Positions 20,509 through 40,289 of a stretch of 64,000 bases of DNA are shown one piece after another. Source of the stretch: a bacterium. GTDB lineage: Bacteria > Elusimicrobiota > Elusimicrobia > Elusimicrobiales > UBA9959. The notes beneath the pieces are model-generated. The model was not told where the DNA came from and searched no databases. It was given only the letters and a program-made list of their open reading frames with translations. The position numbers and the translations under genes were made by a program. The stretch spans positions 5,103 through 69,102 of the forward strand of contig JAJZOZ010000001.1 in NCBI GenBank assembly GCA_021811405.1, given 5' to 3'. Within the stretch, counting starts at the first letter, position 1, and the number at the start of each line of letters is the position of its first letter.

Positions 20509-20538
20509 TCGCTAAGAACGCGCCGTACCGGAGGAGCG

Positions 20539-22729: not shown

Positions 22730-23365
22730 ATGAAGAAACATGAATCCGTGTGGGCGGGCATGCTTATAGCGTGTGCCCTTGTTCTGCCGGCGCGGCCGGC
22801 GCGCGCAGTGGTTGCGGGTTCCCTGCACGACTTCACCGCGGCCCCGTATTCGCTGCTCACCACCTGTTCGGGCTGCCACGTGCCGCACCAGACCAAGACG
22901 AATGTCCCGTTATGGGCGCACGCGACATCCACGTATACCTACACATTGTATAACCAGAACGCGGCGTATGTCGTGAAAAGCCCCGCCTTCACTTACGATG
23001 CGTCCCCGAGCGCCCTCACGGGCAGCAAATCGCTGTTATGCCTGGGCTGCCATGACGGTACGGTGGCGGTATCCGGCACGAACTATATCACGCAGGCCTC
23101 GGCCTCCTGGATACTTTATGACGCCGGAGCGAAGGTGGGCGGCCAGGCGAGCGCCAATCCGTCGGCCGGCCTGAAAGGCAGCCATCCTATCGGTGTCGTC
23201 TACCAGGCGGTGGCGGGGAAATATAATGATATCTCGCTCGACCCCGATGTGAAGCTGGACAGCACCAAGGTCCAATGCACTTCGTGCCACAACCCGCACA
23301 ACCTGTTCCCCAAGATGCTGGTGAAATCAGGCGCCGCGCTCTGCACCACCTGCCATATAAAGTAA
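22730..23365 (+). CDS. Tetrahaem c-type cytochrome (211 aa), cassette A
   Basis: Start at ATG 22730 (RBS GGGGAGG, signal MKKHESVWAGMLIACALVLPARPARA). Motifs CSGCHVPH, CLGCHDG, CTSCHNPH and CTTCHIK, plus NVPLWAH and GSHPIGVVY. Confidence 0.85.
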   Translation: MKKHESVWAGMLIACALVLPARPARAVVAGSLHDFTAAPYSLLTTCSGCHVPHQTKTNVPLWAHATSTYTYTLYNQNAAYVVKSPAFTYDASPSALTGSKSLLCLGCHDGTVAVSGTNYITQASASWILYDAGAKVGGQASANPSAGLKGSHPIGVVYQAVAGKYNDISLDPDVKLDSTKVQCTSCHNPHNLFPKMLVKSGAALCTTCHIK

Positions 23366-23437
23366 CGCGCGGCAGGAACGGCCCGCCGGGGTTTTTAAGC
23401 ACGGGGGCCGCTGTTTCCGGGAATCCAGGATGATAAA

Positions 23438-24490
23438 ATGCGCTGGAAAACGGCCGGCATCAGTCTGAAAACGCTGAAGTTTCCAGCCATGCTGCTGGCT
23501 ATAGCGTTCACGGCAGCCGCCGCGGCGTCCGTTGGCGGGCGTGTCTGGCCCCCGGCCCCGGATAAGGCGCGGATCCGGCTGATAGCCGTGCTTCCCGAAG
23601 CGGCGCAGGAGGACAATGCCGGGCCGCTTTTTCTGAAAATTTTACGCCGCCTGGCCGGCCTGAAGCCGGGCAAGCGCCGCGGTCCGGGGTTTGTGCGCCC
23701 CACAGGCGTGGCCGTGCGCGGCCGCGTCGTCTATGCCGCAGACCCGGGAGCCGGAGGCGTTGTCATCTATGACACCGAAAAACGTTCCTGCAGCCTGATT
23801 CCGGCCAACCGCCGCAACCGCCTGCCTTCTCCGGTAGGAGTGGCGGCGGCTTCCGACGGGAGCATATTCGTCAGCGATTCCCGGCTGCGGAAAGTTCTTC
23901 TGTTCGACGCCGGAGGCCGCGCCAGCGGCGAACTTAAACCCCCGCCGGGCGCTTTCATGCGGCCGGGTGGTCTGGCTCTGGACGAGGCCCGCGGCCGGCT
24001 GTGGGTGGCCGACGCTGCGGCGCATATGATCTACGCCTATTCTCTCGGCGGAGAATACCTGTTTTCCATCGGCGCGCGGGGCCAGGCGCCCGGCAGTTTC
24101 AATTATCCCACCTATCTCTGGGCCGATACGCGCACAGGAGCCCTGTGGGTCTGCGACTCCGGCAACTTCCGCGTCCAGTCCCTTGACGCCGCCGGGCGGC
24201 CGACAGGGGCTCTGGGGCGCAACGGCAACTGCCCCGGTTATCTGGCGCGGCCGCGCGGCGTGGCCGCAGATTCCGAAGGCCACGTCTATGTGGCGGACGG
24301 CGCGATGTCCGCCGTGCAGATATTTGACGAGAGCGGGCGGTTATTGCTGTATTTCGGAGAGCGGGGCGGCCAACCGGGCGAGTTCTATCTGCCGGGGGGG
24401 GTGTTCATTGACGGCGACGACAGGATATATGTCGCCGATACCTATAACGCCAGGGTGCAGGTATTCCAGTACCTGAAGGACGCGCCATGA
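23438..24490 (+). CDS. Exported NHL-repeat beta-propeller protein (paralog 3 of 4), cassette A
   Basis: Signal peptide. VWPPAPDKARIRLI. NHL units. C-terminal ARVQVFQYLKDAP. ATGA overlap with the next gene. Confidence 0.85.
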   Translation: MRWKTAGISLKTLKFPAMLLAIAFTAAAAASVGGRVWPPAPDKARIRLIAVLPEAAQEDNAGPLFLKILRRLAGLKPGKRRGPGFVRPTGVAVRGRVVYAADPGAGGVVIYDTEKRSCSLIPANRRNRLPSPVGVAAASDGSIFVSDSRLRKVLLFDAGGRASGELKPPPGAFMRPGGLALDEARGRLWVADAAAHMIYAYSLGGEYLFSIGARGQAPGSFNYPTYLWADTRTGALWVCDSGNFRVQSLDAAGRPTGALGRNGNCPGYLARPRGVAADSEGHVYVADGAMSAVQIFDESGRLLLYFGERGGQPGEFYLPGGVFIDGDDRIYVADTYNARVQVFQYLKDAP

Positions 24491-26367
24491 AGAAAATGTC
24501 CGCCGCTGCCGCCTCCGCCGCGCCGGCCGCCATTTCGCTGCTTCTGGCCGGCGCGCTGTTCCCGCCTCCGGCGCGCGCGCTTGTCGTCGCCGGTTCTAAA
24601 CACGATCTCTCTCCCGGTTCGGGCACGTCCCAGACCTGCATATTCTGCCACACGGCCCACCAGGCCAAGCGGAACGTCCCGCTGTGGAATCATTACGTGA
24701 CCACCCAGACCTTCACCTTCTACTCCTCCAACCATCTCAACACCTACCTCGCCATCGCCGCCCCGACCATGGCCGACCTCCCCGGAACTCGCACGGAGCT
24801 GTGCCTGTCCTGCCATGACGGGATGACGGCCCTCGGAGGCCTCTACAATCTGGGCGGGGAAACCATTTCAAAACCCCCGGCCGTTACGGGCCCCGCCAAC
24901 CTGGGCACTAACCTCGCCGACGACCACCCGGTGCTTTACGACGTCAAGCCCGGCGCGGGTCCGCCCGGCTCGCCCGGCACCGACCCCGAGATACAACTGC
25001 CGCTTGCCGGCGACGCGGTCAAGGTCTACGGCGCCGCCAACAGGGTGGAGTGCACTTCCTGCCATGACCCGCATGATAACCAGTTCGGCCATTTCCTGGT
25101 CAAATCCAACGCCAACGCGGCCATCTGCACGACATGTCACATAAAATCCGGCTTTTCCGCCTCCGCGCACGCGACTTCCGTCGTGGCCTATACTCCGCCA
25201 GGCGAAGCGGCGACCACCGTCGGCGAGTGGTCATGCCGGAACTGCCACCGTTCCCACGGGGCGTCCGCGACGCAGGCCTACATCCTGCGCGGAGCCGAGG
25301 AGGCCACCTGCTACCAGTGCCACGGCAATCCTCCCCTGGCCGGCGCCAGGAATATGCAGGCGCTCTTTCTCAAAGCCTCCAGACACCCGACGGAAACGGT
25401 CTCGGCCAGGCATAAGGACCCGGAGACGGACGGCTCCAATTTCACGTATTCGCCGCTCAACAACAGGCATGCGGAATGCCAGGACTGCCATAATCCGCAC
25501 CAGGCCAAGACCGGCACCCATACCGCGCCCGCCAATAACATCTCGAACGTACTGCTGGGCCAGTGGGGCGTGGAACCCTCTGACGGCGCGATCTGGACCG
25601 CGGCCATCGCCTATGTCCGCCAGGTCTTCGCTAACACGACAGGCTACAAGGAGTACCAACTCTGTCTCAAGTGCCACTCCTACTACGCCTTCGGCGCCAT
25701 ACCCGCTCCCAATATCACGGACCAGACCGTCGAGTTCAATATCAATAACAAGGCCGCTCATCCTGTCCGCGCGGGTCTCAGCGGCCAGACCGGGAGCGTT
25801 GCTCCGAAGGCTTTGACGGCCGGCCAGATGTCGGCGCCGTGGACGACCGCCGGCACCCAGACGATGTACTGCTCGGACTGCCACGATTCTGACGTCGCTG
25901 CCGATCCCAAGGGTCCGCATGGCTCGGCCGGAACGTGGCTCAAGAAAGGCCCCAACGTCTACTGGCCCAGGGACGCCGCTCTGGCGCTGTATACGCTGGG
26001 CGCCAACAACACTACCGACGCGCATCTGGCGGGACTTTTCTGCCGCAACTGCCATCCTTTGAGAAGCGCGACAGCAAATACCTGGTACAACAACGCCCAC
26101 CAGGAGCACAGTGGGGCGCAGGTAAGCAATGTCCCCTGCGTGGCCTGCCATGTGGTGGTCCCGCACGGCTCGCGCCGCGGGCGGCTCATCGGCTACGCGG
26201 CTGAAAGCGCCCCCTACAACAACAACGGCGCGGGAACCCTTGAAAAACTCGTGCTGAGCGGCTTTAAGAAAGCGACGACCCCCGTAGGATACGTCACGGG
26301 AAACTGTTACTCCACCGTCGCGGGATGCAGTTCGGTGCATACGAACGCGGGTGGCTATGATCCCTGA
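24487..26367 (+). CDS. 11-haem c-type cytochrome (626 aa), cassette A
   Basis: Signal peptide. 11 CXXCH motifs: CIFCH, CLSCH, CTSCH, CTTCH, CRNCH, CYQCH, CQDCH, CLKCH, CSDCH, CRNCH and CVACH. The first ~215 aa are homologous to the small tetrahaem proteins. Confidence 0.9.
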   Translation: MKKMSAAAASAAPAAISLLLAGALFPPPARALVVAGSKHDLSPGSGTSQTCIFCHTAHQAKRNVPLWNHYVTTQTFTFYSSNHLNTYLAIAAPTMADLPGTRTELCLSCHDGMTALGGLYNLGGETISKPPAVTGPANLGTNLADDHPVLYDVKPGAGPPGSPGTDPEIQLPLAGDAVKVYGAANRVECTSCHDPHDNQFGHFLVKSNANAAICTTCHIKSGFSASAHATSVVAYTPPGEAATTVGEWSCRNCHRSHGASATQAYILRGAEEATCYQCHGNPPLAGARNMQALFLKASRHPTETVSARHKDPETDGSNFTYSPLNNRHAECQDCHNPHQAKTGTHTAPANNISNVLLGQWGVEPSDGAIWTAAIAYVRQVFANTTGYKEYQLCLKCHSYYAFGAIPAPNITDQTVEFNINNKAAHPVRAGLSGQTGSVAPKALTAGQMSAPWTTAGTQTMYCSDCHDSDVAADPKGPHGSAGTWLKKGPNVYWPRDAALALYTLGANNTTDAHLAGLFCRNCHPLRSATANTWYNNAHQEHSGAQVSNVPCVACHVVVPHGSRRGRLIGYAAESAPYNNNGAGTLEKLVLSGFKKATTPVGYVTGNCYSTVAGCSSVHTNAGGYDP

Positions 26368-26434
26368 ATCCCGCCGTTGCGCCGGGAGAAGGTGATGCCG
26401 GCCGGAATGGTTCCCGGGTTGGGAGGGCGAACTC

Positions 26435-28108
26435 ATGCGCCGCCATACCAGCTGTCTGCTCTGCGTTTTCTGGCTGCTGAAGGCGGCCGTACCCGCAGCG
26501 CGAGCGCAATCCCCGTACGCAGCGTCCGGCCGGCTCGGCTGGTCCTATGACGACGTCATGGTCCGGACCCCGGAGGGAAGCAGGCGCATCGCGATAGCCG
26601 GCCAGAAGTACAATCTGAACCTCCGGGGACCGTTCGGCCTGCCGGGGATCGGCGAAGGCTTCGCCACGCTCGACTATTCTGAAGGGAGGAACCTCTCGCA
26701 GGTCGTCGCAGGCGGGGGCGCCGCCCAGAAGCTGGTCGGGTATTCTATCGGCGGCAGCTTCCTCCCGCCGGAGGCGCGCGAATTCGTGTCGCTTGGCGGG
26801 ACGTTCGCGCGGAATTCCGACCGCACGGCCTGGGGCGCGGGTCCGCCCAGGAATCTCACGGACACGAGCTATGACGGCAATATCGGCCTGACGCTGCCCG
26901 GGCTGCCGAGCCTGCAGCTGAGCTGTCAGAACCTTCAGCGCCGCGACAGCGCCGAAGGCGCGCCGGCCAGCCAGGATATCATAACGTGGCGGGAGCGCGC
27001 GTCGTACGCCAAGGGCCCTCTGCGCTGGAATTACTTCCGCACCCGGCAGGATACAAGAGCCCTCGGTCCGGGAGTCCGGAGTTCCGGCAACGACGACCTT
27101 TCCACCGACCTGTCCCTGGACTATCCCGCTCTGCGCGTGCGCGGCCTGCGAAGCCTGGCCCTGCGCGCCTCGTTTACCCGCCAGGCGTTCGACAGCGCCG
27201 GGAACCGGAGGACGCAGCAGTCTATCGGCGAGAGCGGCTATCTCACCACGGCGCTTTCGCGCAGCGGACGGTTCGAGTCATATCTCGGCTACGGCGAGAG
27301 CTTTTCCCGCATCGCCGGGGAAAAAAGCCTGCGCTCCAGCCATAACCTGAGCCTGGTCAGCCAGTCGGTTTCGTCGCGCTGGAATGTGAACAACCAGGCC
27401 AAGTACTCCGCGGCCTCCGGCCCCGGCGTAAGCGGCCAGAGTCTCGACGAGAATTTCAACGCGGAGTCGCCGAGGTTCGGCAAATACTTCGTCTACTATC
27501 TGCAGAGCGCCGGCAGCGTCCGCTGGGGGGGATCCGGCGGAGGGACGGCCGGAGAATCGGCGTTGCAAAAACTCTCCTTCTATCCCCGCCCGGAACTGGA
27601 TGTCTACTGCCAGCAGAGCTACTCGGGTTCGGGCGCCAGGCTTGGCCGGGCGCGCGAGGACAGCCTCGGCTGGGCCGCGGGCGTCAATTGGCGGCCCGGC
27701 AGCCTTCTGGAAACCGCCGCCGACTACAGTCGGCAACGCGGCCGCGGTCTTCTTACTGACCAGCTGACGTTAAGTTATAAAGCCTTTCCGCTGGACAGTA
27801 TGACCATAGGATGCGGTTATTCCCTGCAGCGTACCCGGACTTACCGGCCGCTGCCGATGGAATCCGTGTACGGCACATTCAAAGCCGACCTTGGATATCG
27901 CCCGGCCGAGGGCCTCTCGCTGGACGCCAGCCTCCTGCGGCAACGGTTTGCCGGGGAGAATCCGGGCCGGCCAGGCGCCATGGATTATTCCCTGTCGGCG
28001 CTATACCAGCTGGGCGCAGTCGAAATGAGCGTTAAATACGAAAACCGCGCGATTTCAACGGTCAACGAATACAGCCGTCTGGCAGCGGAGTTCAGCCGGA
28101 ATTTTTAG
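26435..28108 (+). CDS. Large outer-membrane beta-barrel protein (557 aa), cassette A; putative porin partner of the cytochromes
   Basis: RBS GGGAGGG. Signal peptide ending AARAQ. Ser/Gly/Tyr/Arg-rich alternating beta-strand pattern throughout. C-terminal AAEFSRNF (terminal Phe). Paralog of 38586-40289. Confidence 0.7.
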   Translation: MRRHTSCLLCVFWLLKAAVPAARAQSPYAASGRLGWSYDDVMVRTPEGSRRIAIAGQKYNLNLRGPFGLPGIGEGFATLDYSEGRNLSQVVAGGGAAQKLVGYSIGGSFLPPEAREFVSLGGTFARNSDRTAWGAGPPRNLTDTSYDGNIGLTLPGLPSLQLSCQNLQRRDSAEGAPASQDIITWRERASYAKGPLRWNYFRTRQDTRALGPGVRSSGNDDLSTDLSLDYPALRVRGLRSLALRASFTRQAFDSAGNRRTQQSIGESGYLTTALSRSGRFESYLGYGESFSRIAGEKSLRSSHNLSLVSQSVSSRWNVNNQAKYSAASGPGVSGQSLDENFNAESPRFGKYFVYYLQSAGSVRWGGSGGGTAGESALQKLSFYPRPELDVYCQQSYSGSGARLGRAREDSLGWAAGVNWRPGSLLETAADYSRQRGRGLLTDQLTLSYKAFPLDSMTIGCGYSLQRTRTYRPLPMESVYGTFKADLGYRPAEGLSLDASLLRQRFAGENPGRPGAMDYSLSALYQLGAVEMSVKYENRAISTVNEYSRLAAEFSRNF

Positions 28109-28421: not shown

Positions 28422-28530
28422 TTCCGGCGACAAGGTGACCTGCCTTTCCTGCCATGCCAGCGAACTGACGGCCGGCCTGCAAATGCCCGGCGGCCAGACC
28501 GCCCTCTGCCTCGCCTGCCACAGGCTGTGA
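28422..28530 (+). pseudogene. Orphan 3' fragment of a cytochrome gene (direct repeat copy B)
   Basis: Encodes ..GDKVTCLSCHASELTAGLQMPGGQTALCLACHRL*, nearly identical to the C-terminus of the 20539-21102 product. The frame is closed by TGA at 28327. There is no signal peptide and no ATG or RBS. An AT-rich patch lies upstream. Confidence 0.75.
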
Positions 28531-28563
28531 GCTCGCCCCGCCGCCGGCCGCCCCTCCGGGCGG

Positions 28564-29841
28564 TCAGCGCTCCCCGCCCCGGTCCAGCCCGAACAAGGTC
28601 CTGACAGCGCTTATCTTCGCCAGCGTCTCCTCGTCCGTACCGTTCCCGCCGTTCTTGAGGCCGGTGATGGGAGCGTGCAGGATCCTGCCGAGGACCCGCC
28701 TGGTGACCACGTCCAGCAGCTCGCGGTCCCGCTCCCCGAAGCGGCCGGCGTGCTTCTCCACCTCGCTGCGGCGGATCTCCTCGAAGAGCTCCGTCAGCTC
28801 CCTGATCGTGGGACCGGCGGCGAGGGAGAGGTGCCAGCGGGTGAACGCGGCGAGCTCCTCCTCTACGATAGTCCTCACCTTGGCGGCTTCGCGCGTCCGC
28901 TTGTCCAGGTTCTGGTCCACGATGCGCTGGAGGGCGTCGATATCGTGAAGGAAAACGTTGCCGACCTCGTCCGCGAGCGGGTCGATATTGCGGGGGACCC
29001 CGATGTCGATAAGGAAGAGCGGGCCGCGGTCGCGCTCGCGTTCCCCCATGGCCCGGCGTACGTCCTCCGCCCTGAGAACGTAGTCCGGCGCGGAGACCGA
29101 GCTGATGACGATGTCGGCCCGGCGCAGGTGGGTGTGAAGGGCGTCGAAGTCCACCGCCGTGCCCCCCAGCTTCCCCGCGACCTCCTCCGCCTTGCCGCGC
29201 GTGCGGTTGGTTATCAGCAGGTCCCGGACGCCCCTGCCGGCGAGGTGCCTGCCGGTCAGTTCGCCCGTTTCCCCGGCCCCTATGAGAAGGACGCGTTTCT
29301 GGTCCAGGCGCTCGAAGATCTTAGCGGCCAGCTCGGCGGCGGCGAAGCTGACGGAGACGGCGCCCTCGCCTATCCCGGTCTCAGCGCGGCTGCGCTTCCC
29401 GACGTGGAACGCCGTCTGGAAGAGCCGGTTCAGGAGCAGCCCGCTGGTGGAAAGCTCCGCGGCGAGGGAGAAGGCGTCCTTCACCTGCCCCAGGATCTGC
29501 ACGTCGCCCAGGACCATGGAGTCCAGGCCGGAGGCCAGCTCGAAGAGATGCTTCGCCGCCTCGCCGGAGCGGAGGGCGTAGAAATGCCCCGGGCGGGCCG
29601 CCTGCCGCGCCCCCTTGAAGTCCACCAGGAAATCCCGCAGCCGCTCCGGCCGCGGCTCGCCGGACGGGGAGACGGCGTAGGCCTCGGTCCTGTTGCAGGT
29701 GGAGACCAGGACGCATTCGCTGAACGCGCCGCTGCGCAGCGCGGGCAGCGCCTCCCGGAGCTCCTCGCGCGAGAAGCAGAGCTTCTCGCGGACGTCTACG
29801 GGAGCGGTCCTGTGGTTGAGTCCGACGCAGAGAAGGTCCAT
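28564..29841 (-). CDS. hemA: Glutamyl-tRNA reductase
   Basis: MDLLCVGLNHRTAPVDVREK. The motifs STCNRTE and GAGETGEL (NADPH site). Length 425 aa. Confidence 0.9.
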   Translation of the reverse strand: MDLLCVGLNHRTAPVDVREKLCFSREELREALPALRSGAFSECVLVSTCNRTEAYAVSPSGEPRPERLRDFLVDFKGARQAARPGHFYALRSGEAAKHLFELASGLDSMVLGDVQILGQVKDAFSLAAELSTSGLLLNRLFQTAFHVGKRSRAETGIGEGAVSVSFAAAELAAKIFERLDQKRVLLIGAGETGELTGRHLAGRGVRDLLITNRTRGKAEEVAGKLGGTAVDFDALHTHLRRADIVISSVSAPDYVLRAEDVRRAMGERERDRGPLFLIDIGVPRNIDPLADEVGNVFLHDIDALQRIVDQNLDKRTREAAKVRTIVEEELAAFTRWHLSLAAGPTIRELTELFEEIRRSEVEKHAGRFGERDRELLDVVTRRVLGRILHAPITGLKNGGNGTDEETLAKISAVRTLFGLDRGGER

Positions 29842-29862
29842 GGTTTGGCCGGAGGAACGCGC

Positions 29863-30687
29863 TCAGCTGAAATTGTGGAAGCCGCGGAAAAAGAGATTTA
29901 TGACGGTCATGGAGAGCAGGGCCAGGGCGAACCCCAGGATGGACAGGACGGCGAACTTCTTGCCGTACCAGCCCGCCGCCTCCCTCAGCCCGAGGCCGGC
30001 GCCGTACACCAGCCAGATGAGCGCGGTGCCGATGAGCTTCGGGTCCACGTAGGAATGCCCCGGGAACGCCCTGGCCAGCCACGCCATGCCGACCGCTATC
30101 GCCACGGTCAGGAAGAAAAAGCCCGTCGCCGTCGAGATGAAGCTCAGCCTTTCGAGTACCTCCAGGCTGGGCAGGCGCTCGTAGACGACGCCGAGCCGGC
30201 TGGACTTTATCTCGTGATAGAGCATCAGGTAGAGGAAGCCGTAGACGGCCGCGATCGCGAGCGCCGCGTAGCCGAGCAGCGCGCCGGAAACGTGTATCCC
30301 GAGAAGCCGGCTCTTCAGGACTGGATCCACGTCGGTCCTGTTCACGATCAGCAGCGAGGAGGCGAGCTGGAAGAGCAGCGGGAGACCGAGGATGAAACAG
30401 CCGGTGCCCTTCACCTTGGTCCAGTACTCCAGCAGGAAGTACGCGAGCGAAATGCTGAAGGCGATGACCGAGAGTATCTCCGGAAGGCTGGTGATGGGCG
30501 GGTGTCCCAGAAAGACCGTCCGGGCGAGCAGATAAGTGAGATGGACGGAAAGCGCGGCGATAAGCAGCGGCGTCTTGGCGGTCTTCGCGACGGGGCTCGC
30601 GCTGAAGAACGCCCTGGCGTACGCCGCTACTGTTGCCAGGTAAAGGAGCGGCAGCAGAGCGTTCAACGCGGTTATTGCATGGTTCAT
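29863..30687 (-). CDS. Cytochrome c assembly (CcsA/HemX-like) integral membrane protein
   Basis: About 8 predicted TM segments immediately upstream of hemA, as in hemA-hemX arrangements. The start at ATG 30687 is supported by the promoter at 30731-30759, so the track start at 30759 is rejected. Confidence 0.6.
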   Translation of the reverse strand: MNHAITALNALLPLLYLATVAAYARAFFSASPVAKTAKTPLLIAALSVHLTYLLARTVFLGHPPITSLPEILSVIAFSISLAYFLLEYWTKVKGTGCFILGLPLLFQLASSLLIVNRTDVDPVLKSRLLGIHVSGALLGYAALAIAAVYGFLYLMLYHEIKSSRLGVVYERLPSLEVLERLSFISTATGFFFLTVAIAVGMAWLARAFPGHSYVDPKLIGTALIWLVYGAGLGLREAAGWYGKKFAVLSILGFALALLSMTVINLFFRGFHNFS

Positions 30688-30730
30688 TGCCGTGTGCCGT
30701 AACGAAAAAACATACTGACCGGCCGGTTCA

Positions 30731-30759
30731 AGTTTATGTAAATCGTGTGTCGAAGTCAA
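30731..30759 (-). promoter_or_regulatory. Sigma-70-type promoter for the ccsA-like/hemA operon
   Basis: On the minus strand, TTGACT (30759-30754), N17, TAAACT (30736-30731). Confidence 0.55.
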
Positions 30760-31153: not shown

Positions 31154-31232
31154 CCAGTATTTGTGCAGTACCAGGCGGGTGTCTGGATTTTACAGGAAGA
31201 AAACAGCGAAAACGAAAATTATGGAGGAGATA

Positions 31233-31892: not shown

Positions 31893-31980
31893 AGGGTATA
31901 GCGGGTCCCCTGAGGGCCTGACAGTACATAAGACGCCGGGCGCCACACACGCCCCCGGCGGCTTATTGAAGGGGGCGATG

Positions 31981-32008
31981 TTTACGCGGGAGGACGAAAA
32001 GGTATAAT
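31981..32008 (+). promoter_or_regulatory. Possible internal sigma-70-type promoter
   Basis: TTTACG-N16-TATAAT, 46 nt upstream of ATG 32055. The -35 box is weak. Confidence 0.35.
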
Positions 32009-32054
32009 TTATCCGGGTTTTTTCCGGCCGGATGTCCGGAGCCCGCTGATCAGG

Positions 32055-33077: not shown

Positions 33078-34981
33078 GCGCGCTTTCCAGGACCATACTT
33101 TTCCCGGCGGCCTTGCTGGCCTTCGCCGCGGCCCCGTGCCGCGCAGCCTCCATAGTGAACTCCAAGCACGACATGTCCTCGCTGTCGGCCACCACCGGGC
33201 CCAAGTCGCTCTCCACCAGCGAGCGCTGCGTTTTCTGCCATACTCCGCACAGGGCCGGCGTGAACGTGCCGCTCTGGAACCAGTCGGTCACCACCCAGAC
33301 CTTCACTTTCTATTCCTCCAACTACGTCAACACCTACCTGGGCATGGCCGTCCCGACCATGGCGAAGCTGGCCGGCTCCCGCACCAAGCTCTGCCTCTCC
33401 TGCCACGACGGCATGACCGCGCCCGGCAGCGTGTTCAATCTGGGCGGGACCGGCGGCCGGCTGAACATGAGCGGTCCGCTGGGCTCCGCTTCCACCCTCG
33501 GCGTGAACCTGGCCGACGACCACCCGGTCCTTTACGGCGTAAACCCGGGCGCGGGTCCCCCGGTCCAGCCGGGGACCGACCCCGAGATACAGCTGCCGCC
33601 CGCCGGGGACAAGGTAAAGGTGTACGGCGCGGAGAACCTGGTGGAATGCACCTCCTGCCATAACCCGCACGATAACCAATACGGCCATTTCCTGGTCAAG
33701 TCCAACGCCAACGGCGCGCTCTGCACCACCTGCCATTACAAGACCGGCTTCTCCGCCAGCGCGCATAAGCTGTCGGCCGTCTCCTATACTCCGCCCGGGG
33801 AGAGCCCCACCACCGTGGGCGAGTGGGCCTGCCGCGACTGCCACCGTTCGCACGGGGCGTCCTCGGTGCAGGCTTACCTGCTGAGCGGCGCGGAAGAGGC
33901 CACTTGTTACGCCTGCCACGGCAATCCGCCGCTTACCGGGGCCAGGAACCTGAAACTTACCGTAGGCAAAGCCTACAAGCACCCGGTTGAGACCGTCTCC
34001 GGCAGGCACAAGGACCCGGAGACGGATGGCGCCAATTTTACGTATTCGCCGCTCAACAACAGGCATGCGGAATGCCAGGACTGCCATAATCCGCATCAGG
34101 CCAAGTCCGGCACGCATGTCGCCCCGACCAACGTCATTTCCAGCGTCCTGCTGGGCCAGTGGGGCGTGGAACCGGCCTACGGCACGGCCAGCTGGACGCA
34201 GCCCACCAGCTATTCCAGGAAGGTATTCGCCGACACGCTGAACTACAGGGAATACCAGCTCTGTCTCAAATGCCATTCCTCGTACGCGTTCGGGACTACG
34301 CCCCCGCCCGGAATAACGGACCAGTCGATAGAACTGAGCATAAATAACCGCGGCGCCCATCCGGTGATACGGGGGCTTAACAGCCAGACCGGCAGCACCA
34401 GCCCCAAGCCGCTGGCGGCCAACCAGCTTTCCAGCCCCTGGTCCGCCGCGCGCGGAACGCAGACCATGTACTGCTCGGACTGCCACGGCCCGGACAGCAC
34501 AACGGATCCCAAGGGTCCGCACGGTTCCGCCGGAGAACACATCTTGTCCGGGCCGAACGTCTACTGGCCCAGGAAACCCGGGGGGGCGCTCTACACTCTG
34601 GACGACTTCCCCGGGGGGAACAACTCCGGCGCCAACACCTCGGCTGGCCTGTTCTGCCTGAACTGCCACCCGATGTACTCCGGAACCAGTTTCTTCAACA
34701 ACGTCCACATGGAGCATAATCAGAAGAATCAGGGCGTTACTCATGCCTGCGTCGGCTGCCATCAGGTGATCCCGCACGGCTCAAAACGCTCCCGGCTTAT
34801 AGGCTATGCCTCCGACCAGGCGCCTTACAACTATAACGGGACGGGGGCGTTCGATAAGCTGGTCCTGTCCGGGTTCAAGAAGGCGACCAGCCCTACCGGT
34901 TATGTGAAAACGAACTGCTACGCTCCTGTTTCCGGTTGCAGCAGCGAGCACGGGATCAACTCGGGCGGATATGATCCATGA
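33074..34981 (+). CDS. 11-haem c-type cytochrome (635 aa), cassette B
   Basis: Motifs CVFCH, CLSCH, CTSCH, CTTCH, CRDCH, CYACH, CQDCH, CLKCH, CSDCH, CLNCH and CVGCH. Collinear with 24487-26367. Confidence 0.9.
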   Translation: MSALSRTILFPAALLAFAAAPCRAASIVNSKHDMSSLSATTGPKSLSTSERCVFCHTPHRAGVNVPLWNQSVTTQTFTFYSSNYVNTYLGMAVPTMAKLAGSRTKLCLSCHDGMTAPGSVFNLGGTGGRLNMSGPLGSASTLGVNLADDHPVLYGVNPGAGPPVQPGTDPEIQLPPAGDKVKVYGAENLVECTSCHNPHDNQYGHFLVKSNANGALCTTCHYKTGFSASAHKLSAVSYTPPGESPTTVGEWACRDCHRSHGASSVQAYLLSGAEEATCYACHGNPPLTGARNLKLTVGKAYKHPVETVSGRHKDPETDGANFTYSPLNNRHAECQDCHNPHQAKSGTHVAPTNVISSVLLGQWGVEPAYGTASWTQPTSYSRKVFADTLNYREYQLCLKCHSSYAFGTTPPPGITDQSIELSINNRGAHPVIRGLNSQTGSTSPKPLAANQLSSPWSAARGTQTMYCSDCHGPDSTTDPKGPHGSAGEHILSGPNVYWPRKPGGALYTLDDFPGGNNSGANTSAGLFCLNCHPMYSGTSFFNNVHMEHNQKNQGVTHACVGCHQVIPHGSKRSRLIGYASDQAPYNYNGTGAFDKLVLSGFKKATSPTGYVKTNCYAPVSGCSSEHGINSGGYDP

Positions 34982-36273
34982 GAAAGCTGCTGGTCTCGCC
35001 CCGCACGGCGCTGGCGCTGATGGGGGCGATAGCGGCGGCCTGCTGCGCGGCTTCCTTCGTGCCGCAGATAGCCGACAGCAGCCCGGCCGTTATCGGGGCT
35101 TGGAGGAGTGCCAGCCCGCTGACTTACCGGCTGGCCGGGGTCCTGCGGCTTGACAGGATATATACTTCTCCATGGTTCCTGCTGCTGGTAGCCGCGGCCG
35201 GCGTGGTGCTTGCCTATTCGGTCCGGCTGCAGTTCCGCGGCTGCCTTTCCGGCCTGGCCGGGAGCGGCGCGCCGGCGGTCCAGTTCCCGGGCCAGGGGCG
35301 CTTGTCCGCGGCGCTGTCAGCCAGAGGGTATTCCATGCTTCCGGCATCGGCAGGAGAGGCCCGTTTCGCGGCCAACAGGCCTGGTCGGTGGGGCTCGCCT
35401 GTCTTTCATCTCGGGCTGCTGCTGGTGATAGTCGCCGCCTTCCTGACGTTCGCGTTCCAGCAGAGAGGCTTCGTGCAGCTGATAGAGGGCGAGGTCTTCG
35501 ACGGCGCCGCCGCCGATTTCCTTACCGTGAACAATGGGCCGCTGGCCGGCCGCTTTTTGGTGCCGTTCAGCCTGCGCATGAACAAACTGGAGCAGGCATA
35601 CTGGGGGAACGGACAACCCAGGGATTTCGGCAGCCGGGTGGACTTCCTGGAGGAAAGCGGCAGGCCGGCGCCGGCTCTGATCTCGGTAAACAACCCCTTC
35701 CGCCGGCGCGGCGTGACGGTGTACCAGTCGCCCTATTACGGCTACAGCGTGTCGCTGGCGCTGAAAAGACCGGCCGGCGCGGAAACGCTGACGCATTTCC
35801 TGCTGGACAGGGCCGCCGTCCCTTCGAGGCCTGCGGTCGGTGGGGCGGATTTCCCCGGTACGGGCTATCTTTTCTGGCTCGAATTCCTGCCGGACGCGGC
35901 CGGACGGTCGTTCTTCGTGAAGGACCCGGTACTGAAGGCCCGCGTGACGGAAGGCGGCCGCGTGGTCTTCGACGGCCCCGTTCCGATGGACGGCACGGTG
36001 CGGGTCGGAGCGGATTCCCTGCGCGTGGCGGCCGTACGCGGCTGGAGCGGGCTCGTGTTCGTCCGCGACAGGTGGCAGGGGCTGGCGTACGCGGGACTGG
36101 GGCTTTGCGTCCTGGGGGCCGCGCTGATGTTCCTGCTGCCGTATCGCGAGCTGGCCGTGGCGCTTCCGGACGCCGGCGAAGCTGTGGTCCGGGCGGTTTC
36201 GGGCAGGGAGATGGACCTGCTGCGTGAAGAGGCGCGCGACATAGAGGCTGAACTTAAAAAATGGAAGGAATGA
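34978..36273 (+). CDS. ResB/CcsB-like cytochrome c biogenesis protein (System II)
   Basis: Membrane topology of an N-terminal TM pair, a large soluble loop and a C-terminal TM. It sits directly upstream of, and is coupled to, ccsA. The assignment rests mainly on context and architecture. Confidence 0.6.
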   Translation: MRKLLVSPRTALALMGAIAAACCAASFVPQIADSSPAVIGAWRSASPLTYRLAGVLRLDRIYTSPWFLLLVAAAGVVLAYSVRLQFRGCLSGLAGSGAPAVQFPGQGRLSAALSARGYSMLPASAGEARFAANRPGRWGSPVFHLGLLLVIVAAFLTFAFQQRGFVQLIEGEVFDGAAADFLTVNNGPLAGRFLVPFSLRMNKLEQAYWGNGQPRDFGSRVDFLEESGRPAPALISVNNPFRRRGVTVYQSPYYGYSVSLALKRPAGAETLTHFLLDRAAVPSRPAVGGADFPGTGYLFWLEFLPDAAGRSFFVKDPVLKARVTEGGRVVFDGPVPMDGTVRVGADSLRVAAVRGWSGLVFVRDRWQGLAYAGLGLCVLGAALMFLLPYRELAVALPDAGEAVVRAVSGREMDLLREEARDIEAELKKWKE

Positions 36274-37085
36274 CCCCTCTTAAGGCCGGGATACTGCTGC
36301 ACTGGGCCGCGGTGACGCTCTATATACTCTCTACGGTGGCCTACGCGGCCGCAGCGACTTTTTCCCGTGAGAGCCTGCTGAAGAAGGGCTGGTGGCTGGC
36401 GCTGGCCGGACTTCTGCCGCACAGCGCCGCCCTGGCGCTGCGCTGGTACGCCACCGGGCACGGCCCGTACATGGCGAAATACGAGGTGTTCTCTTCCAAC
36501 GCCTGGGTGGCCGTACTCATGTTCCTGGTATTCTCCAAAAAGATACCGCGCCTCAGGGCGGCCGGTTACGTGGTGCTGCCCGCTTCCTTCCTGATGATGA
36601 CGGCAGGCTTGTTCACAAGCCCGGAGCTGCGTTTTCTGCCGCCGTCGCTCAGGAGCTTCTGGCTGGTGCTGCATACGGTGTTCGCCAAACTGGCCGTCGG
36701 AGGCATACTCATCGCGGTGGGGGCCTCCATCCTGTACCTGGTCAGGGAAAGGAAGGGCGGCGCGGAGGCGGCCTCCCTCCCGGCGCTGGACGACTATGCC
36801 GGCCGTTTCGCCGGCTTCGGCTTCATTTTCTGGACCATCATGACGGCCGCCGGCGCCATCTGGGCCAATGAGACCTGGGGCCGCTACTGGGGCTGGGACC
36901 CCATAGAGACCTGGTCCCTCATCACCTGGCTGCTTTTCGGCTCCTACCTGCACGGCCGCCGCTCCCTGGGCTGGCGCGGCGGGAAGGCCGCCTGGGTATT
37001 GCTCGGCTGCTTTGTCCTGTCGCTGGCCACGGTGTTCGTCATCCCGTTCGTCTTCGACACGCTCCACGGGGAGTACTTCAGATGA
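36261..37085 (+). CDS. ccsA: Cytochrome c-type biogenesis protein CcsA/ResC (System II haem handling)
   Basis: WWD-type haem-handling motif WGRYWGWDPIETWSLITWL. Polytopic membrane protein with conserved His residues. Confidence 0.85.
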   Translation: MEGMTPLKAGILLHWAAVTLYILSTVAYAAAATFSRESLLKKGWWLALAGLLPHSAALALRWYATGHGPYMAKYEVFSSNAWVAVLMFLVFSKKIPRLRAAGYVVLPASFLMMTAGLFTSPELRFLPPSLRSFWLVLHTVFAKLAVGGILIAVGASILYLVRERKGGAEAASLPALDDYAGRFAGFGFIFWTIMTAAGAIWANETWGRYWGWDPIETWSLITWLLFGSYLHGRRSLGWRGGKAAWVLLGCFVLSLATVFVIPFVFDTLHGEYFR

Positions 37086-38593
37086 AGGCCAAGGTCCTGC
37101 TGATGACGCCGCCCTATCACTGCGGCGTGGTGGAAGCCGCCGGCACCTGGGTGCCGCTGGCGCTGGCGTCCGTGGCCGGCGGCCTCTCCCGCGCCGGCTA
37201 CGAGGTGGAGATCTACGACGCGATGGCCAAGTACTCGGACTGGGCCGCTATCGAGGAGAAGCTCAGGTCCTCGAACCCCGACTTCGTGGGGACCACGGCC
37301 TTCACGGCCACGGTCAACGACGCCGTCAGGGCGCTGGCGCTGGCCAAGCGCGTCAAGCCGGGCGTGGTAACGTTGCTGGGCGGCATCCATCCCAACTTCC
37401 AGTGGAAGGAGCTCCTCGAGGCGGAGGATTCGCCGGTGGATTACGTGGTCAGGGGGGAGGGCGAGGTGACGGCGCCCCGCCTGCTGGACGCCATAACCTG
37501 CGGGGAGCCGCCGGAGCGCGTGCGGGGGATAGCGCTGCGCGACGCTTCCGGCAGGGCCTTCGCCACGGCATCCAGGCCGCTGATAGAGGACCTCGACGCC
37601 CACCCGGCCGCGTGGGAGCTGCTCGACTGGAAGGACTACACTTTCTATCCCCGGCCCGGCTCCGTCTCGGGCCTGATCTCCTCGTCGCGCGGCTGCACCG
37701 AGGCCTGCTCCTTCTGCAGCCAGCAGAAGTTCTGGTCCCAGAGCTGGAGGGCGAAGTCCCCGGAGGCCTTCGTCGGCGAGATAGAGCTGCTGCGCAAGGA
37801 GTTCGGCGTCTCCATAGCGATGGTCGCCGACGAGACGCCCACCAAGGACCGCGCGCGCTGGCGCAGGATACTGGACCTGCTGATAGCCAGGAAGCTCGAC
37901 TTCGAGCTGATGCTGGAGACCCGCGTGGACGATATCCTGCGCGACCGCGACTGGCTGGACGACTACCGGCGGGCGGGCATAATGCACATTTACGTGGGGG
38001 TGGAATCCGGCTCGCAGGAGACGCTGGATACCTTCAAGAAGAACCTTAAGACGGAGCAGTCCAAAGAGGCCATAAAGCTGATAAACGAGGCCGGGATAAT
38101 CAGCGAAACGGCCTTCGTGCTGGGCATGCCGGGGGAGACGCCGGAGTCCATACGGCGCACCACGGACCTGGCCCTGGAGTACGGTCCCGACATGGCCTTC
38201 TTCATGGCCATAGCCCCGTGGCCGTATTCCGACATCTACAGGGAGCTCAAGCCCCTGGTGGAGACGGACGACTACTCGCTCTACAACCTGGTGCGCGCCG
38301 TGGTCAAGCCCAGGGCGATGACCCGCGCCGAGGTGGAGGCGGAGCTGGCCTCCGCCTTCAGGAAATTCTACATGCACCGGCTCAAGGGGCTGGAGAAAAT
38401 GCCGCCCTTCAAGCGGGAGTACATGCTTGCCGTGACCAGGCTGCTGGCCTCGCACTCCTACCTCAAGGAGCAGATGAAGGGGATGGGGGGCTCGGCCGGC
38501 ATGCCGGAGGAGGTGCTGCGCGTTCTCGGCGCGGCCGGCGTCGCGCTCACGGAGGCGGCGCGGCCGGGCTCCGCGGATAAAAAGCATGCGTGA
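37082..38593 (+). CDS. B12-binding-domain radical SAM enzyme (class B rSAM)
   Basis: N-terminal cobalamin-binding-like domain (VLLMTPP..DFVGTTAFT..LLGGIHPN). The CX3CX2C cluster motif is SSRGCTEACSFCSQQ. ATGA overlaps at both ends embed it in the operon. Confidence 0.8.
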   Translation: MKAKVLLMTPPYHCGVVEAAGTWVPLALASVAGGLSRAGYEVEIYDAMAKYSDWAAIEEKLRSSNPDFVGTTAFTATVNDAVRALALAKRVKPGVVTLLGGIHPNFQWKELLEAEDSPVDYVVRGEGEVTAPRLLDAITCGEPPERVRGIALRDASGRAFATASRPLIEDLDAHPAAWELLDWKDYTFYPRPGSVSGLISSSRGCTEACSFCSQQKFWSQSWRAKSPEAFVGEIELLRKEFGVSIAMVADETPTKDRARWRRILDLLIARKLDFELMLETRVDDILRDRDWLDDYRRAGIMHIYVGVESGSQETLDTFKKNLKTEQSKEAIKLINEAGIISETAFVLGMPGETPESIRRTTDLALEYGPDMAFFMAIAPWPYSDIYRELKPLVETDDYSLYNLVRAVVKPRAMTRAEVEAELASAFRKFYMHRLKGLEKMPPFKREYMLAVTRLLASHSYLKEQMKGMGGSAGMPEEVLRVLGAAGVALTEAARPGSADKKHA

Positions 38594-40289
38594 GCCGCGT
38601 CCCGGCAGGCCGTGGCGCGCCGGCGTCCTGGCGGCCTCCGCTTCATTGGCCGTCTGCGCCGCTTCCGCCAGCGGCGGGCAATACCATTATTCCGGCAAGC
38701 TGGACTGGAGGTTCGAGAGCGTCGCGGTAAGGACCCCGGCCGGAAAGACCACCACCTCCATGGGTTCCCATGTCTACAGCCTGAATCTGGACGGGCCTCT
38801 GGGAACGCCGCTCATCGGCAACGGAAACCTGGGGCTGACCCTGCAGGGGGGGAAGAGCCTCTCCAACGTGGTGGCCGCGCGCAAGTCCTCGCAGGAACTG
38901 ACCGGCTATAACTTCGGGGCCACGCTGCTCCCCCCTCCGCTTAGAAGGTTCATTAATCTCTCCCCCAACTTCAGCAGGAGCGTCAATAAGACGTCCTGGG
39001 GCGACGGCGCGCTGCATAACATAACCGACGCCGCTTCCGGGGTCACGGCCGGGCTGACGCTGCCGAAACTGCCGACCTATTCCGTCACCTATCAGAAACT
39101 GAGGCGCACCGACGACAGCAGCTACGCTTCCGACCAGGAGACGGACATCATGGACGAGCGCGCGCTTTATATGAAAGGCGTGCTGAGGGCGGAATACCAG
39201 CGCCGCCGGCAGACGACGCGCGATCTGCTGGGAAGGTCACCGGATAACGAGGTGGACAGCGTGAACTCCAGCGTCGACCTGAACGACGCGGATTTCAACA
39301 GGCTGGGCCTGCGCTCCTACTTCATGCGGGTCTCGTACGCCGGCCAGACCAATCGGTCCGTAGGCAGCACCAGTCAAAGAGGGGTTTCCTCGCTTTTCAA
39401 TCTCACCTCCAGGACGGTCCGTTCCGGGGGGGTGAAATCCTATCTCGGATACACGCAGGGCCTTAACCGCGATCTGGTCTCGAAGGCGCGCACGTCCAAT
39501 TCCGATGTAACCGCCTACAGCTCCTATTCCGGTTCCAGCGGCACCATAAACAACCAGCTGCAGTTCAGGAATATCGACGGACCCGCGGGAGCGGACCGTT
39601 CCGTCAGCGACAACCTGAACTCGGAGGTCACGCTGTTCAACGGCCTGGCCGGCCACAGGCTGCAGCTGGCAGAGACTCTCTCGTGGGGGGCGCAGGGCGC
39701 CCGCGGCACCGACCTGATAGAACAGCGCGTTTCGGTATATCCCGCCGCGAAATACGACTTCTACGTGGACCAGCGCTACTCTGCCGCACGTTCCGCGGCC
39801 GCCGGGGCGCTGAACCAGGGGCTTGGCTGGGGCGGCGGCGTCAACTGGAGGCCGGCCTATTACGCCCGCGGGGACATGAGCTATCAGGAAGACCTCGGTT
39901 CCGACCTCGCGAAGGGCAGCAAGACCAGGTCGGATACGGTCACCATGAAGTTCTCCGCCGAGCCCGCGGTCGGCCTCTCGGCCACTCTTATCTGCGCCTT
40001 TTATTCCAACAGCGCCGAGCTCGTCAGGTCCAGGAACGGCACTCTTTCGCTGGAAACCGCCTATTCCGTGACCCCGGCCCTGACGTTCTCCGGCAGCCTG
40101 TACCGGACGGACACGCGGCAGCGTTTCCGGCCGGACGGAGGGCGGGCCAGGACGGTCTCTTTGGATTACAGCGCCAGGATGGTCTACAACATCGGCCGTA
40201 CCACGCTTTCCCTGCTGTACGAATCCAGGGAAGCCTCAGTCTTCAACGCGTATTCGCGCTTCGGCGCTTTCCTTACGCGGACCATTTAA
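38586..40289 (+). CDS. Large outer-membrane beta-barrel protein (567 aa), cassette B; paralog of 26435-28108
   Basis: Signal peptide. The N-terminal region is alignable with the cassette A barrel (YSGKLDWRFESVAVRTPAG..YSLNLDGPLG versus ASGRLGWSYDDVMVRTPEG..YNLNLRGPFG). The same strand-like composition is seen throughout. Confidence 0.7.
   Translation: MREPRPGRPWRAGVLAASASLAVCAASASGGQYHYSGKLDWRFESVAVRTPAGKTTTSMGSHVYSLNLDGPLGTPLIGNGNLGLTLQGGKSLSNVVAARKSSQELTGYNFGATLLPPPLRRFINLSPNFSRSVNKTSWGDGALHNITDAASGVTAGLTLPKLPTYSVTYQKLRRTDDSSYASDQETDIMDERALYMKGVLRAEYQRRRQTTRDLLGRSPDNEVDSVNSSVDLNDADFNRLGLRSYFMRVSYAGQTNRSVGSTSQRGVSSLFNLTSRTVRSGGVKSYLGYTQGLNRDLVSKARTSNSDVTAYSSYSGSSGTINNQLQFRNIDGPAGADRSVSDNLNSEVTLFNGLAGHRLQLAETLSWGAQGARGTDLIEQRVSVYPAAKYDFYVDQRYSAARSAAAGALNQGLGWGGGVNWRPAYYARGDMSYQEDLGSDLAKGSKTRSDTVTMKFSAEPAVGLSATLICAFYSNSAELVRSRNGTLSLETAYSVTPALTFSGSLYRTDTRQRFRPDGGRARTVSLDYSARMVYNIGRTTLSLLYESREASVFNAYSRFGAFLTRTI

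Follow-up and report, generated by a model that had tools for sequence, protein, structure and literature searches.

Two paralogous OmcE-type cytochrome cassettes and a linked haem lyase-radical SAM trio in an Elusimicrobia locus

What kind of system is encoded where two matched sets of cytochrome, propeller and barrel genes lie on one contig, and what do the haem-lyase genes of one set serve? The question is raised by a 64,000-nt stretch of DNA from the genome of an uncultured member of the Elusimicrobia (contig JAJZOZ010000001.1, positions 5,103-69,102, assembly GCA_021811405.1), called the window here, and all coordinates below are window positions. Cassette A (22730-28108) and cassette B (31233-40289) are collinear and have the same gene order, namely a tetrahaem cytochrome, an NHL beta-propeller, an 11-haem cytochrome and a predicted outer-membrane beta-barrel of ~560 aa. 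Cassette B additionally contains, between the 11-haem and barrel genes, a ResB-like gene, a CcsA gene and a gene for a B12-binding radical S-adenosylmethionine enzyme (rSAM), which we call the trio. We consider it moderately probable that the region at 11.2-40.3 kb is a sigma-54-regulated, OmcE-type locus for extracellular electron transfer, in which the cassettes are old paralogues, the 11-haem cytochrome would be a base or adaptor, the trio would mature the C-terminal site of the 11-haem cytochrome, and cassette A would use the trio in trans.

Comparison and history of the two cassettes

The products of the two cassettes align pair by pair in BLASTP: the tetrahaems are 48% identical over 240 aa (E 6e-65), the NHL proteins 54% over 312 aa (E 1e-111), the 11-haem cytochromes 66% over 613 aa (E 0), and the barrels 33% over 555 aa (E 4e-79). 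Each alignment spans essentially the whole mature protein, and the likeness is not confined to CXXCH motifs or NHL repeats. All open reading frames (ORFs) named in the original prediction, a note made from the sequence alone, are present at their coordinates, and its description of two collinear four-gene cassettes that align over their full length agrees with these results. At the DNA level, blocks of 76-85% identity lie at a constant offset of 8,521-8,602 nt across the tetrahaem and 11-haem genes. The gene junctions were also read, and the ATGA overlap between the NHL and 11-haem genes is present in both cassettes, as are the tight overlaps that had been noted from the NHL gene through the barrel gene of cassette B. 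ATGA overlaps also join 11-haem to ResB and CcsA to rSAM, ResB and CcsA overlap by 13 nt (4 nt if the next ATG is used), and rSAM and barrel overlap by 8 nt. The NHL/11-haem ATGA overlap recurs in related loci, which we designate by L and a number (L001, L003, L042, L124-L126, L128). We infer from the overlaps that the cassette products may be made in fixed stoichiometry.

Other Elusimicrobia have the order histidine kinase (HK), response regulator (RR), cytochrome, NHL, one or two tetrahaems, small Zn-ribbon protein, NHL, 11-haem and barrel (L001, L124, L125), and the same order is found in L042 and L126, with the trio placed before the barrel. Ignavibacteria-like genomes have the order cytochrome-x-NHL-tetrahaem-barrel-NHL-11-haem (L003, L128, L039, L123, L127). 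The Zn-ribbon gene (125-129 aa), located between the tetrahaem and the 11-haem-coupled NHL genes (L001 8605-8988, L042 8565-8942, L124 7602-7991, L125 7599-7985, L126 6599-6985), is absent from both cassettes here. The trio follows the 11-haem gene in L040, L042, L110, L123, L126 and L127, even where the barrel lies elsewhere (L123, L127). This arrangement suggests that the trio belongs to the 11-haem gene and not to the barrel.

In two metagenome-assembled genomes (MAGs; L040/L041 and L129), a trio-linked cassette is immediately followed by an A-type cassette. The A-type 11-haem orthologues are 75-77% identical to that of cassette A, and the trio-linked 11-haem protein of L040 is 73% identical to that of cassette B. 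In a neighbour-joining tree with 60 bootstraps, the A-type clade was recovered in 57 and is nested among trio-linked genes, B was basal in 51, and A and B were sisters in none. Since orthologues of the A type and of the trio type are found side by side in these MAGs too, the split between A and B is as old as the clade, and the two cassettes are old paralogues. Because the A-type clade is nested among trio-linked copies, loss of the trio from the A type is likelier than insertion into B, and the trio is probably ancestral. The description of the trio as an insert carried by cassette B is thus not upheld, since in many lineages the 11-haem gene has the trio after it. The proposal that the cassettes duplicated as units stands in part: both types coexist in L040 and L129, and the component trees are not fully congruent, the NHL tree departing from the 11-haem tree, so that components may also have been exchanged later. 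A recent tandem duplication or an assembly artefact would fit the collinearity and the constant offset of ~8.6 kb, but the paired proteins are just 33-66% identical, A and B were never sisters in the bootstraps, and both types coexist in MAGs from different samples. We therefore reject this explanation, which we regard as very improbable.

A block upstream of cassette A (18215-22512) had been described as a third, partial module. The NHL proteins form two orthologous groups, "upstream" and "11-haem-coupled"; those of cassettes A and B belong to the latter, and those at 19382 and 21451 to the former, with 19382 clustering with the upstream NHLs of L001 and L042. The 360-aa cytochrome of this block (18215-19297) shares with the 626/635-aa 11-haem proteins ~25% identity over ~200 aa only; it has a different architecture and is not their orthologue. 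A block of cytochrome, NHL and OmcE-like genes lies upstream of NHL-11-haem-barrel in L001, L042 and L124-L126. The supposed third module is thus the first half of the locus, which is conserved, and did not arise by decay of a further cassette.

OmcE-family cytochromes and their partners

Homologues of OmcE, the nanowire subunit, are recognized by four CXXCH motifs and four histidines (bioRxiv 10.1101/2025.10.22.684050). Among sequences of the PDB, tetrahaem A matches 9yuq (3e-12) and 7tfs (5e-9), and residues 27-220 of the cassette A 11-haem protein match 7tfs at 3.6e-29 (phmmer). Entry 7tfs is the OmcE filament of Geobacter sulfurreducens, and 9yuq is a 16-chain multihaem entry that fits the OmcE bundle of D. 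soudanensis. In a joint alignment with both entries, the four CXXCH motifs and four further histidines (N-terminal KHD, CHxPH, DHP, CHxxH) are kept in both tetrahaems and in both 11-haem N-domains, so that all four carry the family signature, including the histidines that ligate haem in OmcE. Both the tetrahaems and the 11-haem proteins, the latter by their first ~200 residues, belong to the OmcE nanowire-subunit family. In each cassette the tetrahaem has four CXXCH motifs and the 11-haem protein 11; the upstream 360-aa protein also has 11, and the trihaem at 20539-21102 has three. In the same alignment, the trihaem lacks the first CXXCH cysteine, the N-terminal histidine and the histidine after motif 3, and it is a degenerate OmcE paralogue.

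The N-domain of the 11-haem proteins is followed by an extension of ~400 residues with seven CXXCH motifs, all invariant in 92 homologues, and the family has 13 invariant histidines outside the CXXCH motifs among these homologues. An AlphaFold2 (AF2) model of the cassette A protein is confident for residues 330-626 (predicted local distance difference test, pLDDT, 80-94), and the apo N-domain is modelled with low confidence. When the model was compared with the PDB by Foldseek, it gave a weak match to 7tfs and OmcS at E 4, with no solved relative for the extension. Weak Pfam matches to MtrC/MtrF domains were also found in the 11-haem proteins. A search with the fusion cytochrome gave 5,153 matches at E <= 1e-10, a number that includes generic multihaem proteins. 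All of the 120 matches listed are full-length homologues (~590-700 aa, down to 40% identity), and their source names are Elusimicrobia, Ignavibacteriae and Bacteroidota.

Besides OmcE itself, the minimal omcE cluster encodes a large barrel and two each of multihaem cytochromes and propellers (bioRxiv 10.1101/2025.10.22.684050). Geobacter omcE loci, fetched with the 7tfs sequence, have the order resB-ccsB-cytochrome-cytochrome-NHL-omcE-barrel-NHL and match this cluster. In the window, the two additional multihaem cytochromes are the proteins at 14139 (14 CXXCH) and 18215 (11 CXXCH). The latter, the 360-aa cytochrome, is 28-41% identical in tblastn to both cytochrome genes upstream of NHL-omcE (L004, L005, L009, L021, L034), which points to it being the counterpart of the two small multihaem cytochromes in the Geobacter loci. 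The NHL propellers are 30-35% identical to the Geobacter omcE-locus propellers.

The ~560-aa proteins gave no match in Pfam, NCBIfam or the PDB, including a profile search of the PDB, and BLASTP showed no likeness to the Geobacter barrel. They have signal peptides, no transmembrane (TM) helices and a C-terminal aromatic or hydrophobic residue (A ends in RNF). A HMMER scan of 1.84 billion representatives found only 43 relatives (clusters), and a word-indexed homologue search only four matches. An AF2 model built from five sequences is all-beta, with ~24 strands at pLDDT 40. In hhalign against a profile of the Geobacter omcE-locus barrel, the probability was 95.8 with E 7.8e-9 over 469 columns; the score was 81, compared with 38 for the reversed control and at most 24 for block-shuffled controls. 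Their assignment as outer-membrane barrels is thus predicted, and well motivated by these features. Barrels diverge fastest among the cassette proteins, and trio-linked barrel orthologues are 31% identical, versus 58% for A-type orthologues. The trio-linked barrel evolves unusually fast: barrels that follow the rSAM gene (L040 5044-6738, L129 126-1814, window 38586-40289) are ~30% identical between genomes, and in the same genomes the 11-haem proteins are 73%, the rSAM proteins 70% and the CcsA proteins 57% identical. In another metagenome, a single predicted ORF (P0138, 1075 aa) covers both rSAM and barrel. It contains an internal segment resembling a signal peptide and a linker rich in Gly and Asn, and it may be a true fusion or the result of a stop codon lost at the 8-nt overlap.

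Maturation genes, promoter-like elements and neighbouring genes

Pfam matches agree with the earlier assignment of the trio as ResB, CcsA and B12-rSAM, that is, a System II haem-lyase pair and a B12-dependent enzyme. The combination of a ResB-family protein with a CcsA that has a WWD motif is that of a System II synthase. The ResB of cassette B has orthologues of 38-45% identity in L040 and L042, and it is only ~26% identical to the second ResB of L040. The trio CcsA is a divergent member of its family (NCBIfam CcsB 165.7 bits, cut-off 187.6); it is 57-61% identical to its orthologues in L040 and L042 versus 27% to the hemA-linked paralogue, and its lineage is separate from the hemA-linked and second CcsA copies (27-32% identity). 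The rSAM has an N-terminal B12-binding domain (PF02310, 1e-26), a Radical_SAM domain (PF04055, 3.7e-25) and the core motif CX3CX2C at residues 205-212 (C205-X3-C209-X2-C212), as in class B (cobalamin-dependent) radical SAM enzymes. By far its best family match is NCBIfam BchE (TIGR02026; 384.6 bits over the full length), which is under the equivalog cut-off of 481.35, and its neighbours are cytochrome genes; it also matches HpnR, HpnJ and other B12-rSAM families. Its orthologues in L040 and L042 are 69-70% identical.

Every member of the 11-haem family that was examined ends with two extra cysteines and a histidine. Most members have C-X5-6-CH, and the window proteins have C-X6-C-SSV-H (A) and C-X6-C-SSE-H (B). 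The trio directly follows the cytochrome gene in all seven contexts with C-X6-C-X1-3-H (window B, L040/41, L042, L110, L123, L126, L127) and in none of the six with C-X5-6-CH (L001, L003, L039, L124, L125, L128). Two of the positives were predicted prior to look-up and were picked from separate tree clades. In loci anchored on rSAM, the cytochrome upstream of ResB ends in C-Xn-C-X2-3-H in six of seven cases, the exception being L099 with a single C-D-H-S-H; these cytochromes are different proteins of ~570-1,450 aa. Taken together, the co-occurrence of motif and trio and the separate CcsA lineage suggest that the trio is a dedicated maturation unit for the C-terminal site. Candidate functions would be the attachment of a (possibly modified) 12th haem, or modification of the tail peptide.

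Searches with the rSAM gave 261 metagenome relatives, and a CcsA-family gene lies in the flank in 35 of the 80 loci that were fetched. Other recurrent rSAM neighbours are weak ResB-like and CcsA-like proteins, a thioredoxin-fold protein and an FtrD-like membrane Fe-S protein. A protein of 142-167 aa with no Pfam match lies directly upstream of rSAM in 7 of 16 long metagenome loci (L043 6478-6906, L127 7585-8088 and five others) and is absent from this window; it is possibly a further component of the maturation unit. In L128, which is of the CX5CH type, the 11-haem gene is followed by genes of System I (CcmC-like, CcmD_alt and CcmE; 10031-11252), so that proximity to haem-handling genes recurs across maturation systems.

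Elements of the sigma-54 (-24/-12) type, TGGCAG-N5-CTGC, occur seven times in the window versus 0.36 expected. Four of them, on the plus strand, each lie just upstream of a cytochrome operon: 14079-14093 before the 14-haem gene, 17817-17831 before the receiver/11-haem operon, 22626-22640 before cassette A, and 31138-31152 before cassette B. Their positions support the tetrahaem start codons of the original prediction and a common sigma-54 regulon. The start of tetrahaem A at 22730 is favored by the element at 22626 and by a ribosome-binding site; the alternative starts 22652 and 31119 were rejected, as sigma-54-like elements lie at or inside them. The locus begins with an HK and a sigma-54 RR, whose orthologues head the same cluster in other phyla; the cluster with both regulators recurs in Elusimicrobia, Ignavibacteria and Bacteroidota. 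The two proteins are conserved regulators of the system. The preceding gene (10012-11217) has Sigma54_DBD as its sole domain and may encode an unusual RpoN-like protein.

The order of the upstream part is HK, sigma-54 activator, 14-CXXCH cytochrome, a thioredoxin-fold/TPR protein, a 5-CXXCH ORF and a receiver protein, followed by the paired-CXXCH 11-haem gene, NHL, trihaem and NHL (Table 1). The 14-CXXCH cytochrome reaches 162.7 bits, under the cut-off, with the NCBIfam DmsE family, and it aligns along its full length, at 38%, with the cytochrome that lies downstream of the L123 trio; it also has an additional C-terminal CX3CH (SCNVGCH). The 5-CXXCH ORF (16347-16928, start uncertain) overlaps the end of the AhpC/TSA-TPR gene. 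A remnant of the trihaem gene, encoding ...KVTCLSCHASELTAGLQMPGGQTALCLACHRL and then a stop, separates barrel A from hemA; it was left behind when the locus was rearranged or duplicated at an earlier time. Lacking the WWD motif, the product of the CcsA-family gene that lies upstream of hemA resembles the HemX-type CcsA-like proteins that accompany hemA rather than a haem lyase, and the same pairing with hemA is present in L040 and L129. A plus-strand ORF at 28675-30702 was rejected as a shadow of these two minus-strand genes, by GC content at third codon positions and Pfam evidence. Annotated proteins identical to those of the window carry the locus tags M0025_12130, 12135 and 12165 (Elusimicrobia MAG).

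Table 1 Features of the locus, in window positions
Feature	Position	Strand	Remarks
Histidine kinase	11219-12676	+	Pfam HAMP/HisKA/HATPase; 35% to L042 HK
NtrC-type sigma-54 activator (RR)	12680-14059	+	Pfam Response_reg/Sigma54_activat/HTH_8; 43-45% to L003 and L123 RRs
14-CXXCH cytochrome	14139-15452	+	Paired-CXXCH, DmsE/MtrA-like, periplasmic-type; Pfam Paired_CXXCH_1 1e-67
11-CXXCH paired-CXXCH cytochrome, 360 aa	18215-19297	+	Likely start 18308
NHL beta-propeller, upstream type, paralogue 1	19382-20428	+	48% identical to 21451-22512
OmcE-like trihaem, degenerate	20539-21102	+	36% to C-terminal halves of A/B tetrahaems
NHL beta-propeller, upstream type, paralogue 2	21451-22512	+	Orthologue follows A-type barrel in L040
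Cassette A tetrahaem, OmcE-family, candidate filament subunit	22730-23365	+	Signal peptide
Cassette A NHL, 11-haem-coupled type	23438-24490	+	Pfam NHL 1.6e-31; signal peptide; no lipobox
Cassette A 11-haem cytochrome, 626 aa	24487-26367	+	OmcE-like N-domain ~30-220, then ~400-aa 7-haem extension
Cassette A predicted outer-membrane beta-barrel, 557 aa	26435-28108	+	Signal peptide, no TM helix
Trihaem 3'-end remnant, 115 nt	28422-28536	+	90% identical to 20994-21108
hemA	28564-29841	-	Between cassettes
CcsA-family gene without WWD motif	29863-30759	-	Upstream of hemA, between cassettes
Cassette B tetrahaem, OmcE-family	31233-31892	+	Sigma-54-like element at 31138
Cassette B NHL beta-propeller, 11-haem-coupled type	32055-33077	+	
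Cassette B 11-haem cytochrome, 635 aa	33074-34981	+	OmcE-like N-domain; C-terminal C-X6-C-SSE-H
ResB/CcsB-like System II component	34978-36273	+	Pfam ResB 2e-34; 4 hydrophobic segments
CcsA haem lyase	36261-37085	+	Pfam Cytochrom_C_asm 4e-36; WWD motif intact (WGRYWGWD)
B12-binding rSAM, BchE-like, cytoplasmic	37082-38593	+	No signal peptide or TM helix
Cassette B predicted outer-membrane beta-barrel, 567 aa	38586-40289	+	33% to barrel A; same family profile

Proposed mechanism, alternatives and related systems

Homology, architecture and gene order point to the following mechanism, in which localisation, filament formation, the direction of electron flow and the chemistry of the trio are all conditional. 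Periplasmic cytochromes of the paired-CXXCH kind (14139, 18215) would hand electrons to an 11-haem protein associated with the barrel, which would pass them on to OmcE-like subunits outside the cell. The tetrahaem would be secreted and, by analogy, would be the polymerising or outermost cytochrome. The 11-haem OmcE-fusion is likely an adaptor between the barrel and the OmcE-like subunits, a base on which tetrahaem subunits would dock via the OmcE-type interface, at which a histidine of the adjoining subunit ligates one haem. The propeller, translationally coupled to the 11-haem gene, may be a periplasmic scaffold or chaperone. The trio would carry out dedicated maturation of the non-canonical C-Xn-C-X1-3-H site; cassette A, which has the same motif and no trio, presumably uses the trio in trans, and the two cassettes would be kept as separate matched sets.

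Several observations weigh against this mechanism. The Geobacter omcE loci contain no 11-haem OmcE-fusion protein, so a base or adaptor role is without precedent. The barrel belongs to no recognised family and is poorly modelled, and its link to the Geobacter barrel is one profile-profile score with a reversed control that still reaches 38. Desulfuromonadia propellers are described as lipoproteins, and in the window none of four NHL sequences has a lipobox cysteine at the signal-peptide cleavage site. A simple conduit of porin and cytochromes (Mtr/Pcc type), without a filament, is an alternative that we consider unlikely but well worth weighing: the 11-haem protein and the barrel would form a complex across the outer membrane, which the propeller would stabilise, and the tetrahaem would shuttle electrons as a monomer in the periplasm or at the surface. 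A tandem four-gene duplication of such a conduit is described for G. sulfurreducens (ombB-omaB-omcB / ombC-omaC-omcC; PMC4282303), NHL propellers have been proposed to stabilise outer-membrane cytochrome complexes in D. ferrophilus, and the weak MtrC/MtrF-domain matches point the same way. OmcE-like tetrahaems are also described as widespread, and polymerisation need not be a property of them all (bioRxiv 10.1101/2025.10.22.684050). What speaks against a conduit alone is that the tetrahaems keep the complete OmcE histidine set, including the N-terminal one, and lie in the propeller and barrel context that was used to select likely nanowire formers (bioRxiv 10.1101/2025.10.22.684050). The Mtr/Pcc conduit is defined by an MtrB/OmbB-homologous barrel with an inserted decahaem cytochrome, and this was not found: the barrel profile found no PDB sequence, MtrB included, at E <= 10 save noise, and sub-threshold DmsE/MtrC-domain matches are the only Mtr-like signals in the cytochromes.

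The role of the trio can be questioned separately. ResB and CcsA could be a general cytochrome c synthase beside a haem-hungry operon, with the rSAM as an unrelated neighbour, e.g. a lipid or cofactor methylase. The Geobacter loci have resB-ccsB immediately upstream of the omcE cluster, the 64-kb window has no second ResB, the rSAM matches HpnR, HpnJ and other families, and most rSAM homologues have no directly adjacent CcsA, which lies directly upstream in only 11 of 55. The correlation of motif and trio comprises 13 contexts that are not phylogenetically independent. Still, L040 and L129 have a second ResB-CcsA pair next to hemA besides the trio, the trio CcsA is far closer to its own orthologues than to the other copies, and the reading frames overlap both within the trio and at its junction with the cytochrome gene. 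The trio also tracks the motif without exception and follows the 11-haem gene even where the barrel is elsewhere. We therefore find a general synthase rather improbable. It is also possible that the C-terminal cysteine pair forms a disulfide and the histidine is a distal ligand, which would not explain the co-occurrence.

Returning to the dedicated maturation unit, we tentatively suggest, as a possibility that is not the likeliest outcome, that the rSAM and the dedicated ResB-CcsA pair constitute a hitherto unrecognised side branch of cytochrome c maturation. In the cytoplasm the rSAM would act on a tetrapyrrole or on the tail of the apocytochrome; the synthase would export the product and attach it at C-Xn-C-X1-3-H, and the 11-haem fusion would thereby gain a twelfth cofactor that differs chemically from the others. 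The fusion protein would also be the base or tip subunit for which the OmcE field has searched Geobacter operons in vain. Given the 13 invariant non-CXXCH histidines, 12 bis-His haems would fit. In the literature that was searched, no paper linking rSAM with CcsBA maturation was found.

OmcE clusters and porin-scaffold-cytochrome clusters are already known. The omcE clusters of Desulfuromonadia share with this locus an OmcE tetrahaem with four CXXCH motifs and four histidines, NHL propellers, small cytochromes of the paired-CXXCH kind, a large barrel (a predicted one here) with an aromatic residue at its end, and nearby resB/ccsB. The present locus differs in belonging to Elusimicrobia, which are not among the five reported phyla, in its regulation by an HK and a sigma-54 activator, and in having no adjacent glycosylation genes. 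The Geobacter barrels have 705-778 aa versus ~560 aa here and are remotely similar. The present locus differs further in its 626/635-aa OmcE-fusion cytochrome (absent from all fetched Geobacter loci), its two copies of the cassette and its BchE-like rSAM. The osc (omcS-companion) cluster of G. sulfurreducens has a common idea, with a nanowire subunit, a propeller-like OscD, channel-like OscEFG and maturation factors (Shen et al. 2025, summarised in PMC13194489). OmcS is a hexahaem of another family, and the accessory factor that the source describes is a prolyl isomerase, not a haem lyase with rSAM; the likeness is one of description (PMC13194489). EET1 clusters of peat Acidobacteriota likewise combine a porin, a scaffold and an OmcE-like cytochrome with 8-13 haems; they are likened here by organisation, come from other phyla, and have no described link to rSAM or haem lyase (bioRxiv 10.64898/2026.05.27.727921).

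The ombB-omaB-omcB / ombC-omaC-omcC and MtrCAB systems share with the locus a barrel with periplasmic and outer multihaem cytochromes, and omb/oma/omc is duplicated as a tandem four-gene unit. Each Geobacter unit has a transcription factor, and the two units are recent, almost identical duplicates, whereas the copies here share 33-66% identity, have hemA between them and contain a propeller and an OmcE-like subunit. Wolinella succinogenes has dedicated System II haem lyases, NrfI for CXXCK and CcsA1 for the CX15CH of MccA. Common to both cases is an extra CcsA-type synthase beside a cytochrome with a non-canonical haem motif, a candidate one in the present locus; here ResB and CcsA are split and always accompanied by B12-rSAM, and the histidine is one to three residues after the second cysteine. 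BchE, the anaerobic Mg-protoporphyrin IX monomethyl ester cyclase, acts on a tetrapyrrole and shares full-length likeness, the B12 domain and CX3CX2C with the rSAM, which differs in its non-phototrophic context and its cytochrome c biogenesis neighbours. In the literature that was searched, we did not find descriptions of the phylum, the OmcE-fusion cytochrome, the paired cassettes or the linkage of rSAM, haem lyase and motif.

If the proposed mechanism is correct, OmcE-type machinery would reach Elusimicrobia and, by the names of homologues, Ignavibacteria and Bacteroidota, and would bring along its own compact set of regulators. A question in the OmcE field is how filaments are anchored, started or capped, and Desulfuromonadia operons encode no OmcE-like tip or stopper candidate (bioRxiv 10.1101/2025.10.22.684050). 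The widespread ~630-aa cytochrome is a concrete candidate. If the suggested role of the trio holds true, maturation of a c-type cytochrome would involve a radical SAM enzyme. With its two matched cassettes, this genome would be a natural experiment on the partner specificity of subunit, propeller, adaptor and barrel.

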